A DNA stretch of 64,000 bases from Octopus vulgaris (Eukaryota), in assembly GCA_951406725.2 (NCBI GenBank), contig OX597817.1:60264001-60328000 (forward strand), read 5' to 3'. Shown in pieces: positions 2,521 to 56,420 of this stretch (position 1 is the stretch's first letter; every line of letters starts with the position of its first letter). A program made the translations under genes and the position numbers. Under the pieces are notes generated by a model, which ran no database searches, was not told where the DNA came from, and saw nothing but the letters and a program-made list of their open reading frames with translations.

Positions 2521-2640
<120 letters not shown>

Positions 2641-2645
2641 TTATT

Positions 2646-3005
2646 ATGAAATCCTAGTTTTTTTTAGAACTTATTAATATTTTCTCAAGATTTTTCCTGT
2701 AAACTATTTTTAACATTTTCTTCTTATAATCAAAGAATGTATATATGTATTGTAATTTTTTGTGACAATCAGTACTTAACACAACAAAGCTCTTACAAAG
2801 CTTTCATATTTTACTTTTGACAATCTTATTTTTAATGAAATCCCAATATTTTTAATGAACTTTTTAACATTTTCTCAAGATTTCTCCTTGTAAACTGTTT
2901 TTAATATTCTCTTCTTCTTATTATCAAAGAATGTATTGTAATATTTTGTGACAACCAGTACTTAACACAACAAAGCTTTTACATGTTACTTTTGACAATC
3001 TTTTT
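2646..3005. repeat. Diverged tandem dimer of a ~185-bp AT-rich unit
   Basis: The blocks atgaaatcc...ttttctcaagattt...cagtacttaacacaacaaagct...ttacttttgacaatctt occur twice head-to-tail. Confidence 0.8.
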
Positions 3006-3066
3006 GTTAAAAAGTGAAACCGGTCAAGTGAATGAACATCTTTTAAAATTGGATTTTCAAACCTTC

Positions 3067-3124
<58 letters not shown>

Positions 3125-3131
3125 ATACATA

Positions 3132-5167
3132 TTCTTTTCTTTTCCTAGTTTCAGCTAGGGAGCTGCGGCCATACTGGGGCACCACCGTTTGGTTTGCTAC
3201 ACTTTCACTAAACCTCTTCTGATGCGTGATATTTGGTGGATGATGGGGCTTGACGTTGCTGCCTTCATCTGCGTTTCTTGCTTTGCGGTAGATTCATCGG
3301 GAACTCTTGACAGAAGGAGACCTGGTTTTGTTTTGAAACATCCACGCCATGCACGTCTCTCGGGCTTTGTGGAAGGATATTGAAGAAGTGTGGGCCTTTC
3401 AAGCGCAAAGTATGGCAGTATCTGGTCCTGTATTCCGATGGCAATGATGGTGTTTTTGGTACGCTGCAGTGGTGCTCCGTTCTGCTGTTTGTATCGAAGT
3501 TTGGTACAAGTTCTTCTAAGATTTTCCAGTTGTATATTACTGTGTTTCTTTACCGCCTTCGTTCTCGGGAGTAGATTCCTCACACTTTCAGTCTCACCCA
3601 GCAACTGATATGTCGCATTGAGACGAGCTTTGTATAGCTTCACTGGATTGCTTCGAGCTCTGTTGTCAATTTTACAGTTTGTTAGCCACAACTGATAACA
3701 GTAATCGAGACGGCTGAGGATGAATTTCTTCCAGAATGCCGGCATGGTTTCTTGTTCTCTCGTTCTGAAAGTTCTAAGGATCCACCCGACCAACCGTCTG
3801 CATTTTATTGCCAACTTAGTAATATGTACTTGGAAAGATGCATCACATGTCAGTGCTCAGTTCATACACTGATTTTGATTCAGGAATTGCAATCACTTCT
3901 GGGCCAATGTATCCTATCTGCTTTTCATTCAGCTTCGTGTGTTGATAGCGCAGGGCTTGGAATTTTCCAGCATTATACAGCATTTTATTCCCCTCAGCCC
4001 TCCTGTATATTACGTCCAACATCTGTTGCAGATGCGCAACGTCTCCAGGGTTCTGTATACTCTGAGAATCTTTTGTGTCATCTGCATAACTAGCAAGGGT
4101 GGCTATCTCGGTAGTTGAGGGCATGTCTGAAAGGGCCACTGAATAGCAGCGGTCCTAAGACAGTGCCCTGTGGGATACCACTCATTATTTGTGTTTCCTT
4201 GGAGGTGGCTCCGTTGGCCACCACTTCCTGACTTCTATCTTTTAGAAAGTCGTGTAGGTATTCTCCAAGTTTTTTTATGACGCCAAGATTACGTAGCTTA
4301 TGACATATACCATGGTCGACTTTGTCAAAGACTTTTGCAAAGTCGAGATATATCGCCTCCACATTTGAGTTGTTGAACAGTTGCTTTATCACCCAGTCGT
4401 AATGCCGCAAGAACTGTGTCAGGCAGCTTCTACTTGGTTGAAAACCATGCTGGGAGTCAGTCAGCAAGTCATTCTCTTCAAGGAATACAATTAATTTCAT
4501 TCGGACTATAAGTTCCATGACTTTGCTGATGAGTGAGGTCAGAGAGATAGGCCTATAGTTTTTAGCATCTGCTGCCTTTATGAATAGGGCGTATTGTTCC
4601 CTCCCTCAGTTTGTCCGGGAGCTTACCATTTTCAAGGAAGCTGTGAAAAAGAAGCTGCAGTGGTTTTGCAAGGACTCGTTTAGATGACTGGAGAAGGATT
4701 GCTGGGAATCCATCGAGGCCAGCAGCTGAGTTTGTCTCTACGTCATCTAGTGCCAGTATTACGTTCTACTCTTTGAAGTTGATGTAATCAATGGTTACTT
4801 CCTCCCTTTTGTAGCGGTAAAGAATTCAACAGGTTTGCTAACTTGCATGTGCCATAGGGGTTGGGTGAAAACACTTTTGAATTGTTCATTCTGTGTTTCA
4901 CTTACCCTCATTGGGATTCCCGTGAGGGAACCGTCATTTTGGAGGAGTGGCCTTACCTTGCAACGTACGGGGGCAGTTTCTTTACGTACTTTAAGGCTTC
5001 ATTTTATACTTTTTATAACCAAGGATTCTTTGTCTGCTCTTTCATTTTCATGGGAGCGTTTCAGATGTTTTTCAATCTCCAGGCAGGACATTTCACTGCC
5101 GTTGAGTTCTCTGTTGAGGCGGTTTGCAATCTTTGTTCACCGTCTCATAAGAATAGACAACTTGACA
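3132..5167 (-). mobile_element. CR1/L2-group LINE, 5'-truncated, frameshifted RT pseudogene with intact 3' end
   Basis: Minus strand reads NYRPISLTS, QHGFQPSRSCLTQ, YLDFAKVFDKVDH, SGIPQGTVLGPLLF, YADDTK, GWILRTF and SRLDYC. The 3' end is a stem-loop followed by (GAAAA) repeats. Confidence 0.9.
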
Positions 5168-5749
5168 GCATGTTAATTATGATAAATTATAATGGTTATT
5201 GACAATTTGTCTATTTTCGGCATATTTGGCATTAGAATTTTTCTTTTGCCCTTATTTTATAAGTTATTTATAAATTTAACCTTTAAAGGTATTTTTTAAT
5301 ATGCTGGCCATTGATAAAATTTTTTTCGAAAAATTTTATCCTGCATTAGATGCCAATTTAATAGTGTTCACTTCCGGACTCTCTCACTCTGTGAAAGTTT
5401 CTAGTTCGAATCACACGTGTCTCGAGATGTGCTGAAGATTTTCTAATTTGGATATATTTGGGATATTTAGGTCTGCTCAGGACTTAGTGCTTGCTTTTTC
5501 CATGAGTATGAGTAAGTATTTCATTTATGTCTTACGTATTTATCGCTGAGGAGGAGAAAATTCTTATGAATTAACTCTGAAATTGGGACCAATACGGTAA
5601 TAACGGAATTTTTTTTAGAAATTTCTATCGGCTTGTTTCGAGACGCATGTTAATTGTGATAAATTATAATGGTTATTGACAATTTGTCTATTTTCAGCAT
5701 ATTTGGCATTAGAAATTTTCTTTTGCCCTTATTTTATATGTTATTTATA
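5168..5749 (+). mobile_element. Retrozyme-like / PLE-associated non-autonomous element: 477-bp unit plus 105-bp partial second unit
   Basis: 5168-5272 repeats directly at 5645-5749 (about 4 mismatches), and the unit contains a complete hammerhead motif. Confidence 0.7.
5540..5600 (+). ncRNA. Type I hammerhead ribozyme (complete, monomeric fold)
   Basis: Stem I ttatcg/cggtaa; CUGAGGA 5546-5552; stem II ggag-aa-aattc-ttat-gaatt-aa-ctct; GAAA 5579-5582; stem III attgg/ccaat; cleavage triplet AUA ending at 5594. Confidence 0.8.
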
Positions 5750-5879
5750 TATATATATATATATGCATGTATGTATGTGTGTGAGTGTATGTACGTGTAT
5801 GTTTGTGTGTATGTATGTGTGTATGTGTGTGTGTGTATGTATGTATATGCCTATATATGTATGTGTAAGTGCGTTTGCG

Positions 5880-17317: not shown

Positions 17318-17471
17318 CGCTAGCCACTACACATTCTTTATTTTCTCTCCTTTCTGAGGAAGAGTGTAGGCTCGAAACGTTAAAGACTTTTTCACTTCCC
17401 GAGCGTTAAACTAATACATCTGTTTGTTGTCTACACTACCTGTCTTCGTCTTTTGTTTTTTTACGAATTCT

Positions 17472-34064: not shown

Positions 34065-34590
<526 letters not shown>

Positions 34591-37389: not shown

Positions 37390-39060
37390 AGTTAATAAGA
37401 AACACATCAGAAAAAGTACACTGTAACAAAGAGAGCAGCAATTATTACAACAAAATTTTATGTAGAGTTAGCCAAGGTTTCGCGTCCACAAAGCCTAAGC
37501 GTTGTGGACAGCTCGTCAGACGTTATATGAATACAAAATTTGAAAATATCTACGTCACAGACGTGAGGAAACGCTCAGAACTCGAGGAATACGAACAATC
37601 ATTAATGAGTACGGGTTATTTCCCCCTAATCCGAGGGGGAAAAAGAAGTTTATATACTCGGAGAGGCCTAGCGAGCAAACGGGGAGATCCAATTTTCTAG
37701 GAAGTAGCGCTTGAAGTGATACACTTAGAAAACACTTCTTTATGGCCTTTAATGCACCACACTTCTTAAAGTCTCTAAGAATTTTGATTCTCTCCGCGAT
37801 GCAGATCTTGCAACGGTCACTTCCATTAATATAAGGGCCCGGAAAATCAATTGATTTCTACCTGATATCACATGAAGGTCCCTTGATCTTCGAGGTGTCA
37901 TACATGGCGGGCCAGGGACGTGACAAACCGTCTTTCTGGGACTCTGAAGGATGACTGGTGGTTAAGAAAACGTGTCTTGAACGAAGTACTCGCCAAACCA
38001 ATATATTTATAAACATGAGATGTTTATTTGCACTCTTATTTGCACTATTCGCACTCCTGGTAACGTATGGCGCAGGGCTGGTCATCCCATTGGTGTCGAA
38101 GATGAATGTTTGGTCCTCATCTGAGTTGGGGGATCTGGGAAAGGCAGATAACTCCTCCAAGTCGTTGGTTCAGGTGCAACTTTTTTTTACTGGTCACTCT
38201 ATCTGCATCTATGGTTTGTTCTTTATCTGTGACAGTGGCACCGGGGTCTTCGGTGACGCTCTCTGTGATGCTGGTCCCGGCTTGGTTATTATCTCAAGAT
38301 TCCCATTGAGAACCACAGTAGATTTTTTAGATGTTACTTTAGATCTGAGCTCTGGTACAAGCCAAATGAGACACTGCCTTATATTAGCACAGCCTCCTGC
38401 CACCTATGCTCGAGCCAAGATATCTTCGCTACCGCTGCCCGCTACTACAATAAGGCACTGGCATCGAGTGGGTTTAAGGACCGTATTTCTTACATGCATG
38501 GCCCTAGTACCTGCAAAAGGAAGTGTTGCAGAAATGTCGTTTGGTTTGCTCCACCCTTCTCACTCAACGTCAAGACTTGTGTGGGAAAGATTTTCCTTAG
38601 ATTGATAGACAAATAGGTTACACACACACATAGATTCAGGCATTTGTTTAACAATCACAAGCTGAGAGTCTCCTTTAGTTGTGCACCTAACATAACAAAC
38701 ATTTTATGAAATACCCACAATACAAGGAGGAGGCATGTTGCTCTTGCGGGGCATATATTAACTGTCCAGTAGGAGGCCGATGCGAGGCTGAAGAGGTCAC
38801 ATACAAGGCTACGGTGACACCTAGACCTAATATCCATAATAACAGTGATGTAATATCGAACAGCAGTATTATTAGCAGATTAACCAGGTCTCACTCTATT
38901 ACAGTTGCCACGCCCAGAGATAATAGCCAAGCTGGGATCAGCATCACAGACAGCGTCATCGAAAACCCCGGCACCACCGTCACGGATAATGAACAAACCA
39001 TAGATGCAGATAGAGTGACCAGTGCAAACGCTGCGCCTGGAAATAATGAATATATGATTC
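37390..39060. mobile_element. Penelope-like element with inverted 5' part: GIY-YIG C-terminus and pLTR on - (37390-38295), RT end and linker on + (38296-39060)
   Basis: Plus strand: VDFLDVTLDLSSG, RNVVWFAPPFS.NVKT.VGK.FL.LIDK, LRVSFSCAPN, CSC..YINCPVGGRCEAEEVTYKATV. Minus strand: YIGLASTSFKTRFLNHQSSF and PYINGSDRCKICIAERIKIL. Confidence 0.85.
37465..37525 (-). ncRNA. Degenerate hammerhead in the PLE terminal repeat
   Basis: CUGACGA-gc-t-gtccacaa...ttgtggac-gc-GAAAC has a strong stem II, but stems I and III are imperfect. Confidence 0.55.
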
Positions 39061-39069
39061 CTTCACACT

Positions 39070-39760
39070 CCACCCGATCTGATCAACCATTGCTCCAAAG
39101 AATAGCTGCTATGTTTCATTGTTGGTGGCAATCTTTTCACAACAAATTCCTGATCTCAAAGTCTCCAGACCCACACTCGACCACTCTCAGGAAATAAATC
39201 TGGACTCATCACAGAATATGACAGTGTCCCAAAATGCTAGTGGCCACTCCAGCATCTCACTGGCCCAATGTTTTCTCCGCTTGATGTCGACTGGTCGAAG
39301 AGGTGGCTTCCTTCTTGCTGCTATGCCATAGTAACCAAGTTTGTGGAGATACCTGACAGCTGTTCTGGGACTGGCATCAACGTGTTCTGCTATGTCAGAG
39401 GCCTAGCAACGAGGATTATCCTCCACACTTCTCTTAGCTAATATAAGGGTCCTGTCAGAGGGCCTTGGTTAATCTGGGTGATGTTGACTCCTTCCCCACT
39501 CTATTAACTGTAGAAAGCGGGATCCCAAGGTTTTCTGCAATTTTACACTATGTCCACCTTCAGAATGACCCACAATACGGCCTCTTTGAAATTCAGACAG
39601 TTCCAAGGCCTCTTTTGTACATGGCAACATTAAACAGTCACATATGGAACCTGAAACATAAAAATGTCAATTAATAAAAAATATATAAACCATTACAAGT
39701 TTGAATAAACAGAAAACGATATTATATGGAATGTCTATTTACTTTTGCCATGTGTGTGTA
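39070..39760 (-). mobile_element. Tc1-family transposon 5' part (transposase pseudogene plus TIR)
   Basis: Minus strand reads LSEFQRGRIVG, IAENLGIPLSTVNR and YLHKLGYYGIAARRKP...WDTVIFCDESRF. Terminus is cacatggcaaaagtaaatag. Confidence 0.85.
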
Positions 39761-53664: not shown

Positions 53665-54830
53665 AGGCACAGTCATGTTTGTGTCGTTAAGAAACTCGCT
53701 TTTTAACCACGCGGCTTCAGGTTCAACCCAACTCCGCGGTACATTGGGTAAGTGTCTGCAACGCAAGCACCGGACTGACCAATGCTTTGTGAGTGAATGT
53801 GGTTACCGGAAAATATGTGGAAGCCCGTCTCATATGTATATATATATATATGTACGTATAATTGTACACGTGTGTCTGTAGTTGTGTTTGTAACCTCTCA
53901 CCGCTTGACAACCGATTGATTGGTTTGTCGGTTTGTTTGCAGCCCCGAAACATAGCAGTTTGGCAAAAGATATTGACAGAATAAGTACTACACTTAATAG
54001 AAGTAGTAGAGTGGATTTGTTCAACTAAACTTATCAAGGCTACACCCTACCATGGTTCCTTTCTGATAACTGAAACCAGATACAAAGAAGAGTTTTCAAC
54101 TCTAGGCACGGGGCATGAAATTTTTTTTGGGGAAGGGCCAATCGATTAGATTGATCCCAGTACGCAACTGGTACTTAATTTATCGACTCTGAAAGGATGA
54201 AAGGCAAAGTCGACCTCGGCAGAATTTGAACTCAGAACGTAAAGACAGACGAAATACCGCTAAACATTTCGCCCGTTGTGCTAACGTTTCTGCCAGCTCG
54301 CCGCCTTAGGCAAGAGATATAATGAGAGCAAATACAGATTACGAAGATAGATGTTAATACACGTATGAATACATAGACCTATATATGCATAGATATATAC
54401 ATTCAAGTATATATGCATAGATACTTACATATATACATACATGCACACACGTATACATTCGCTCACACACACATGTATATATCTTTTATCTTTTACTTGT
54501 TTCAGTCATTAGACTGCGGCCATGCTGGGGTGCCGCCTTCAATTTTTAGACGAATGACCAAATCGCCCCCCCCCCCAGTGCTTATTCTTTAAAGCCTGGT
54601 ACTTAATCTATCATCCTCTTTTGCTGAATCACTAAGTTACGGGGACGTAAACACACCAACACCGGTTTTCAAGAGATGGGGGCGGGGCAACCACAGGCAT
54701 AAAGACACACACATATACATACGACAGGCTTCTTCTAGTTTTCGTCTACCAATTCCACTCACAAGGCTTTGGTCACCCCGAGGCTACAGTAGAAGACACT
54801 TACTCATAGCGTCATGCCCGGATTGAACCC
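53665..54830. mobile_element. SINE cluster: B (+ 53665-54080), A (- 54095-54308), B (- 54482-54830)
   Basis: Family-diagnostic motifs as in the copies above. Confidence 0.85.
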
Positions 54831-54834
54831 GGAT

Positions 54835-56420
54835 TCCTAAATCACGTTCCAGAAAGAGTGGATAAAGAGACGCTCCTGGTTAGTTTTGACGTAACCAGTT
54901 CCCATTCAAATATCCCCCATGGATTAGGATTAGAAGCAGAAAAATTTTGGGCAGACAAATACCCTCACAGAATTCAGCAGAGATTCTTGAAAGAATTCGC
55001 TTGAAAAAAAAGCAACTTCCTCATACGTCTTGCACCAGGAATAAATGAGTTTTTCTTTGACAACCAATATTACCTTCAAATCCATGGCACTTGAAGGATT
55101 ACTGTTGGTTCTTGGAAATAACTGCTTTGAGAACCAGTATTAGCTTCAAATATAAGGCGGCGAGCTGGCAGAATCGTTAGTTCGCCGGATAAAATGCTTA
55201 TCAGTATTTCGTCCGTCTTTACGTTTTTAGATCAAATTCTGCAGAGATCGACTTTGCCTTTCATACTTTCGGGATCGATAGAATAAGTACTAGTTGAGCG
55301 TTGGGGGTCGATTTAATCGACTTAGCCCTTCGGAATTAGTTTTGATTCTATTTGGTGAGAAACTGGAATCGATTCCTGATGGCTGCTTTATATTGTAAGG
55401 AAAACCTTAGAAGATTCATTAGAATTAATTAATAACATTCTCAAATCGTTTCAATTCACCATGGAAATAAATAAAAGATGGTTTCCTGTTTTGGATATCC
55501 TGATAATTAAAGAAAATAAGATGCTTAAAACTGATCTCAGTTGCAAGGAAACGGACGCACACAATATTTAGATTTTATATCTTGCCACTCATTCCATTCA
55601 ACATGGCAAGGTGTAATATTCACGGAGGCAAGTAGACAAGAGAGACAACTGGTAGAACTAAATATATTCCTTTAGAAACAATAATAGCCCCCGAAACGCT
55701 TAGTAAATGGTATCATAAACAAAGCAGAAGAGATCTCAAACTCTGGCTTTCGGAAAAAAACATTCTAAATGAGGATGAAGAAGAAAAAAACGTAAATGTA
55801 AATATTCCAGTTGTATCCATCCGTAATTTCAGACACCAACTTAGATTCGGCCAAACGAATTCTACACCAACCATCAAAGCTCAGGAAAATAATTTAAAAT
55901 AAAAATTACAAATGATCAACAGTGGAAGACAACCACTAAATCTTAAAATACTCATAAGAAAGGCAAAAATTACACCAGAAGAAGAAATAATGCAGCTGAG
56001 AAGCAGTGGGGACCTTCATTAGGAGACTTGTGAAATAATTTAAAGAGGGGAAAGCCAAAAAAATGCCAAGAATGGGAAGGAATTGAAGGTTAATGCAAAT
56101 ATGAATTGTGAAAAAAAAAAAATTCATCTACTAATCACATGCAATGCAATGAGAATTATATCTGCCATAAGCAGTCAAAATTAATAGATCAGATTAGAGT
56201 ACCTAAACAACAAATCAACGATCATCTCTAAGAAATGTTCCTTGTAATGAACATCAGCACATTTGTACAAAGGAAAAACGATCAATTACGGAATAAAAGA
56301 ACTGAAAAACAAATTATAAGAAATCAGAAATACTGAATAGCAATACTAAAATCAACTTTCTCTATACAGAATCTGACGTGCGTGTCTGAAGAACTAAACA
56401 GTGAACGCTCTTACACACGA
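54835..56420 (+). mobile_element. Decayed Penelope-like element (RT + GIY-YIG) interrupted by a SINE A (55156-55330)
   Basis: Reads LLVSFDVTS.HSNIPHGLGLEA..FW.DKYP, FFDNQYYLQIHGT, WNRFL, FQFTMEIN...VLDILIIK...KTD...KETD, QYLDF.SCH and NCEKK..IY..TC. Confidence 0.8.
56378..56419 (+). ncRNA. Degenerate hammerhead downstream of the PLE ORF
   Basis: gtgt-CUGAAGA-act-aaac-agt-GAA-cgctctt-acac. One A of GAAA is missing. Confidence 0.45.

Follow-up and report, generated by a model that had tools for sequence, protein, structure and literature searches.

The window analysed here is a 64,000-nt stretch of the Octopus vulgaris genome (contig OX597817.1, positions 60,264,001 to 60,328,000 of the forward strand). 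Positions 5168-5749 (+) of it hold a 5'-truncated, single-arm retrozyme insertion that comprises a 477-nt unit plus about 105 nt and whose 3' end is the site termed E1. The full unit occupies 5168-5644 (+), its circular permutation being fixed by the position of the 5' end of this copy. A second copy of unit positions 1-105 follows at 5645-5749 (+) and stops at E1. The direct repeat beginning at 5168 and 5645, with a spacing of 477, is evident in the window sequence; its copies differ at 5179, 5219, 5238 and 5262, i.e., at four positions in the first 105 nt, and then run into (TA)n. This target microsatellite (5746-5765, no strand assigned) forms the 3' junction and overlaps the insertion end by microhomology. 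On its 5' side the insertion directly abuts a LINE fragment, a broken element at about 3200-5167 (-) with an RVT_1 match (E 9.6e-15) and coding sequence extending as far as the 5' boundary of the retrozyme. The longest ATG-started frame in 5168-5745 has 44 codons, and the unit lacks the open reading frame with reverse transcriptase (RT) and GIY-YIG domains that marks an autonomous PLE. The sequence-only reading had described a non-coding 477-bp unit with a direct repeat of about 105 bp, which was borne out.

Two internal sites are relevant to what follows: a copy of E1 at 5268-5272 (+), at the apex of a predicted AU hairpin, and a copy of a second site, E2, at 5349-5352 (+), interpreted as RT start sites 1 and 2, respectively. 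A splice-donor-like GTAAGT (5512-5517, +), preceded by CCATG(A/G)GT, lies closely upstream of the ribozyme and may be a remnant of a PLE 5' intron. The 105-bp repeat is the distance from the 5' break of this copy to E1, and the 1.2 units are its stopping point, with no defined structure behind them; the partial tandem proposed earlier is real, whereas a defined length is not, as arms in the family measure about 30 to 968 nt. With a single E1 arm of about 582 nt and one ribozyme, the window copy cannot itself release a monomer or a circle and is a product rather than a source. The earlier view of a monomer-yielding element may hold for the few family copies with two complete ribozymes in tandem (L009, L019, L022 and L027 among them), which could do so, and fails for the window copy. 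By the usage of Li et al., in which tandem ribozymes make an element "active", the family qualifies and the window copy does not.

The hammerhead ribozyme and its dispersed family

The type I hammerhead spans 5534-5606 (+) with its outer stem I included. Stem I pairs TTATCG (5540-5545) with CGGTAA (5595-5600), with one U.G pair, and the core consists of CTGAGGA (5546-5552), GAAA (5579-5582) and an AUA triplet, with a predicted cut after A5594. Stem II joins GGAG (5553-5556) to CTCT (5575-5578), carries a G10.1.U11.1 wobble instead of the usual G-C and continues into a 2x2 loop and a 5-bp hairpin; stem III pairs ATTG with CAAT around a GGAC loop. The core follows the type I pattern C3U4G5A6N7G8A9, G12A13A14, A15.1-U16.1, H17. 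In 119 copies, chosen by a motif filter and hence well preserved, C3, U4, G5, A6, G8, A9, G12, A13, A14, A15.1 and U16.1 are each kept in 113-119, and N7 is A in 22, C in 45, G in 37 and T in 15. As far as sequence patterns indicate, a fixed core beside a free N7 is what would be expected from a ribozyme selected along the lineage. Subfamilies differing by about 15% have retained the catalytic core.

Covariation was assessed in 33 distinct copies, in which 96.8% of helix cells are paired, against 27-47% in slid controls. Two-sided changes occur at 6 of 21 helix pairs: G-C/A-U in helix I, U-A/C-G in helix III, and A-U/G-C at two pairs of helix II, the latter in many rows. Three helices with an open helix I thus covary, through few independent events that were inherited by subfamilies. 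The full type I hammerhead that the sequence-only reading placed at 5540-5600, together with the stem covariation it called for, is confirmed by the window sequence, the genome-wide matches and these changes. The Rfam hammerhead models, proposed as a further check, gave no match here, neither at the gathering threshold nor at E<=10; matching of this kind tests a sequence against a library and does not define the fold.

Genome searches, each of which scored the best 40 candidates, returned 3775 candidates for the unit in its own 2.8 Gb genome, the best 40 being 88-95% identical in the main match, and 3032 candidates for a sister subfamily about 85% identical. Two degenerate ribozyme patterns of 26-30 nt had 651 and 742 exact matches genome-wide, and reversed-pattern controls had none. 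Natural monomers of the relatives measure 460-477 nt, and 11 of them lie between two cut sites. The suggested search for further and tandem copies thus returned a multi-copy element with about 3,800 candidates and partial tandems. The unit combines a short non-coding sequence, a type I hammerhead and many copies, and the window insertion is a copy of a dispersed non-coding hammerhead family, a non-LTR retrozyme on the testable features. Assembled contigs of five presumed-RNA runs cover the unit, contigs of this kind carrying no information on strand, ends, splicing or circularity; no GT-AG joint was seen for the unit in them. No run recorded as RNA was among those containing the unit. Sequencing runs labelled with other organisms also contain the family.

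In fold predictions, the minimum-energy structure of the window copy is not the hammerhead (-16.2 versus -10.7 kcal/mol), helix I having a probability of 0.03 and helix III of 0.00. Most subfamily-A copies are likewise predicted to have a ground state other than the hammerhead. Helix I is predicted to form in most subfamily-B copies, and helix III does not exceed a probability of 0.26 in any of the 35 copies. Helix III (5582-5593, +) is palindromic, ATTGG-GA-CCAAT in the window copy and ATCGG-GT-CCGAT in the sister subfamily, i.e., with a GA or GU centre; in a monomer it is a 4-bp hairpin, and in a double hammerhead it would be a 12-nt duplex. The dimer duplex is predicted to be stable (-12.3 and -15.0 kcal/mol), against 0 and -1.3 kcal/mol for the hairpin, so that a double hammerhead joined through helix III would be the likelier active form. 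A dimer model for palindromic helix III is described in the parts of PMC4209133 and PMC7229834 available to us. Given the predicted misfolding of the monomer and this dimer-type helix, a lone-ribozyme transcript such as 5500-5640, which had been proposed for a cleavage assay, may not cleave even if the ribozyme is genuine. Predicted circular folds are more stable than those of shuffled sequences (z -5.2 for the window unit, -1.3 to -6.8 for the 11 natural monomers). Outside the ribozyme, covariation is weak, with 5 of 123 pairs showing two-sided changes in few rows each, and 8 of the 26 polymorphic columns that lie in pairs disrupt the pairing.

Insertion ends and candidate PLE partners

Insertion anatomy was analyzed in two sets, one of 107 distinct insertions from 121 loci picked by similarity and one of 25 loci in genome order (5 overlapping loci of 30 were dropped). 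The 3' ends fall at two fixed sites, E1 (unit positions ~101-105) and E2 (~182-185), and the interval of about 80 nt between them is the "tail" of PLE terminology. The 5' ends are scattered along the unit, at about 30 to 968 nt from E1 or E2; a clustering of these ends at the cut site or the long helix was rejected, as their histogram is broad. Back-to-back, inverted arms were found in 49 of the 107 insertions and at 15 of the 25 genome-order loci. With both ends classed, the similarity set comprises 32 E1+E2, 2 E1+E1 and 1 E2+E2 insertions (n=35), and E1+E2 accounts for 10 of the 11 in the genome-order set; 14 and 4 inverted insertions, respectively, have an unclassed end. Combined, 42 of 46 classed inverted insertions carry one end of each type (p=2.6e-9 against 0.5). 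(TA)4 follows 69 of 77 E1 ends and 52 of 63 E2 ends, compared with 7 of 25 other ends.

Partial tandems, an inverted 5' copy, a tail on one end and (TA)n targets are features of EN+ PLEs, according to the portion of bioRxiv 10.1101/2021.04.23.441226 that we consulted. In vitro, a PLE starts reverse transcription at two internal sites whose interval equals the genomic tail, and both strands are extended (PMC11167929). The octopus family shows two fixed 3' ends with the tail on one end only (42/46), as well as 5' truncation, partial tandems, inverted 5' copies and microsatellite or AT-rich targets, and its insertions were very probably mobilised by PLE-type machinery. The copies, ends and (TA)n targets support the earlier proposal to this extent. 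An alternative in which E1 and E2 are splice acceptors and the template is an intron was rejected: copies extend far beyond the putative donor, and a GT-AG joint was not observed.

The sequence-only reading had attributed the RT to PLE relics within the window. Two broken relics are present: a Hydra-type element at 37955-39197 (+), with a CxCx5C linker and 4955 candidates genome-wide, and a Neptune-type element at 54813-55636 (+), 30% identical to P0001. The attribution was not upheld, as neither relic shares sequence with the unit; the window relics and the Hydra-type relic family (30 loci) gave no match to it with nhmmer or the covariance model. PLEs are numerous in the genome: a GIY-YIG family search yielded 6136 candidates, of which 150 were scored and 30 loci and 20 larger regions examined. 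No autonomous PLE sharing an end repeat with the unit was found in these 50 GIY-YIG loci of 6136 or in 30 Hydra-type loci of 4955, and the 5' flanks of 62 single-arm insertions held no PLE open reading frame. The only retrozyme match at the sampled GIY-YIG loci (L072/L092) is a separate insertion adjoining a Neptune-type element.

A young Neptune-type family with intact 781-aa RT/GIY-YIG frames (L091:431-5667, G000:C16:20834500-20842500) has two ends about 35 nt apart and (TA)n targets. It was rejected as a partner: its end repeat scored 39 against the unit, with shuffles at 45+-7 and no alignment. Several of its members (L094, L096, L098) have an upstream open reading frame of about 479 codons, and the family carries CCAAT/TATA-like promoter repeats 3' of the stop and a U3-A8 hammerhead-like motif. 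It also has a donor-like site after CCATGGGT, and most retrozyme copies have the identical 8-mer ahead of their own donor-like site.

Circular and linear templates

There are 148 cases in which an arm reads through the cut site, compared with five arms ending no more than 6 nt from it, two of which are the paired arms of a single insertion (L140). No deletion is seen in 143 of 144 cut-site junctions; 125 of 133 are within 1 nt of the standard length, and the other 8 are longer. Seamless passage implies that the template held an intact ribozyme, uncut or rejoined. Within a single arm, the tandem repeats carry the same base at 726 of the 754 common polymorphic sites, where 277 discordances would be expected if they were independent, and share 38 rare variants, versus 19 with the closest other insertion and about 2 with a random one. 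This shared-variant test replaced the divergence from the "best other insertion", a measure biased low by construction. The two arms of one insertion likewise agree at 604 of 628 sites and share 31 rare variants (17 and about 2 in the same comparisons). Repeats and paired arms are thus homogenised, which indicates repeated copying of an identical sequence in each event.

The longest arm measures 968 nt, and no copy beyond about 2.1 units was found. With that arm as the query, no other full-length match appeared among the best 40 of 4173 candidates, and the first 100 listed of the 742 motif matches include one direct tandem pair and no trimer, although tandem arrays may be absent from the assembly. 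The sequence-only reading had derived the copy from reverse transcription around a circular RNA of about 477 nt. Its enzymatic part is supported by the insertion ends; as to the template, we favour, with some reservation, PLE-type mobilisation of a circular RNA of about 470 nt, on account of the read-through, the homogenised repeats and the lack of any long array.

The chief competitor retains the element and the PLE enzyme and has an uncleaved linear RNA in place of the circle, read through from two-to-three-unit copies or from unassembled master arrays; the ribozyme would cut slowly or off-pathway, and a circle would be unnecessary. We consider it a serious but distinctly less probable account. 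Seamless read-through is equally compatible with it, and the predicted misfolding of the monomer speaks in its favour; moreover, in a PLE system in vitro ribozyme cleavage is dispensable and unprocessed RNA is the main substrate (PMC11167929). Among inverted insertions, 6 of 41 E2 arms stop at unit positions 102-110, that is, at E1, beside long E1 arms. Such stops fit one RNA occupied by two enzymes and are simplest on linear RNA, on which no strand displacement would be needed. Differences between upstream and downstream repeats show a polarity (p=0.012 overall) that disappears without the CpG at unit positions 51-52 (p=0.67). At this CpG (window 5218-5219 and 5695-5696), upstream repeats read TG in 8 and CA in 2 of 47 cases, and terminal repeats CA in 12 and TG in 4 of 136. 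The polarity of CpG decay at this one site is not explained by a circle. Against the linear account, repeats within an arm share rare variants with no polarity elsewhere, no copy exceeds about 2.1 units, and the catalytic core has been retained across the diverged subfamilies. In addition, such templates could only become shorter through 5' truncation, and copies longer than one unit are nevertheless present in several successive subfamilies; a lineage shortened in this way needs to regain length, and a circle offers a means of doing so.

Two further possibilities, jointly improbable, are that the RT copies ribozyme-cut linear monomers with end-to-end jumps, or that an unsampled autonomous PLE has the unit as its end repeat. 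The five arms that stop near the cut site, both L140 arms included, would suit jumping, whereas the nearly uniform absence of deletions and the standard junction lengths tell against it. The layout of the unit (ATG, donor-like GTAAGT, ribozyme, two ends) is PLE-like, as in the Neptune-type family, which would suit an end repeat; however, the unit is preceded by another unit, an inverted arm or unrelated DNA, and the 62 single-arm 5' flanks contain neither a PLE protein match nor a common new sequence. A chance hammerhead-like motif within a local duplication, for which the missing Rfam match and the non-hammerhead minimum-energy fold of the window copy might be cited, is ruled out for practical purposes by hundreds to thousands of dispersed copies, the covariation and the free N7 beside a fixed core.

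Returning to the circular template, the following cycle can be proposed, in which the cleavage, the dimer fold, the circle and the identity of the enzyme are the steps that we infer. Rare two-ribozyme copies would be transcribed, and their two hammerheads, probably dimerised through the palindromic helix III, would release a monomer of 460-477 nt that is then ligated into a circle. A PLE RT-endonuclease would nick both strands of a (TA)n tract, one DNA end priming reverse transcription at E1 and the other at E2, two sites separated by 80 nt of RNA. Each cDNA would make up to about 2.1 turns of the template, the extent varying, and would cross the rejoined ribozyme on the way. Joined cDNAs would yield back-to-back arms, and a single arm, such as the window copy, would result where only one is long. 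Tentatively, and at a little less than an even chance, we hypothesize that the family is the genomic record of a PLE enzyme dimer acting on a viroid-like circle of about 470 nt by rolling-circle reverse transcription from two sites 80 nt apart, each primed by one strand of a cut (TA)n target. If so, each insertion would be homogenised, and rare copies spanning two ribozymes would seed the next generation without a master array.

Relation to known retrozymes and PLEs

Metazoan non-LTR retrozymes, as described in the parts of PMC7229834 and bioRxiv 10.64898/2026.07.22.740005 that we consulted, resemble the present family in their low-GC non-coding unit, single type I hammerhead, monomer and dimer copies, self-paired predicted circle and co-resident PLEs, and a PLE origin has already been proposed for them there. 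The axolotl retrozyme ribozyme has a predicted dimer requirement, as here, in the text available to us. The octopus unit (460-477 nt) is longer than the 170-400 nt given for invertebrate retrozymes and lies inside the 51-972 bp range of Li et al., both in the portions consulted. Circles have been demonstrated for metazoan retrozymes in that literature, as far as consulted; for the octopus element a circle is a prediction, and no long arrays were found. The two fixed ends and their pairing are mapped here and not in the texts consulted of PMC7229834 and bioRxiv 10.64898/2026.07.22.740005. Our literature searches turned up no report of a hammerhead retrozyme from octopus or another cephalopod, and no cephalopod appears in the consulted main texts of these two sources, whose supplements may differ and may list such elements. 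The word "ribozyme" has no occurrence in the main text of a 2026 octopus repeat annotation.

EN+ PLEs share with the family two fixed 3' ends, a tail on one end, inverted 5' arms, 5' truncation, AT-rich targets and a ribozyme upstream of both start sites (consulted parts of bioRxiv 10.1101/2021.04.23.441226 and of PMC11167929). Unlike these elements, as described there, the retrozyme unit has no open reading frame, a tail of about 80 nt rather than 30-40 nt, and a full helix III in place of a minimal hammerhead. With the element PAc in vitro, the start site was equal between the strands (PMC11167929), whereas insertion ends here are almost always one E1 and one E2. The minimal hammerheads of PLEs likewise have a palindromic helix III and a dimer model in the available part of PMC4209133, where a circular origin was also proposed for PLE copies longer than one unit. 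In contrast to the ribozymes described in that part, the one found here has a canonical 6-bp helix I and a 4-bp helix II, and its short unit allows homogenisation and read-through to be counted.

Retrozymes and their proposed dependence on PLEs have been published, and the class is not new. New here is countable evidence from insertion sites, namely the one-of-each pairing in 42 of 46 cases, the unbroken copying of the ribozyme, the homogenised repeats and the failure to find an array. This evidence bears on whether a circle or an uncleaved precursor is the PLE template, on which a 2014 model and the 2024 biochemistry disagree. If the circular reading is true, the circular-template hypothesis for PLEs could be put to a direct test in vitro with a substrate of about 470 nt whose start sites are mapped.

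Other hammerhead-like elements were observed in the same DNA. A (TA)n-flanked partial tandem at window positions 2640-3070 has a period of 186 and 1.8 copies, and a U3-A8 hammerhead variant (TTGACAA ... GAAA CCGG TC, 5-bp helix I) was recognised by eye at 2987-3030. Minimal PLE-type hammerhead motifs lie at 34452-34500 (CTGATGA-A-GGCTG...CAGCC-GAAA-CG-TT) and 17350-17390 (CTGAGGA-AGAG...GCTC-GAAA-CG-TT); (AAT)n and (TA)n tracts are close by. Random flanks of the PLE loci contain several more, unrelated families of type I hammerheads, at L064:690(-), L068:45(+), L069:455(+)/208(-), L097:1499(-) and L107:6706(-) and in L193 and L196, the genome being rich in such hammerheads.
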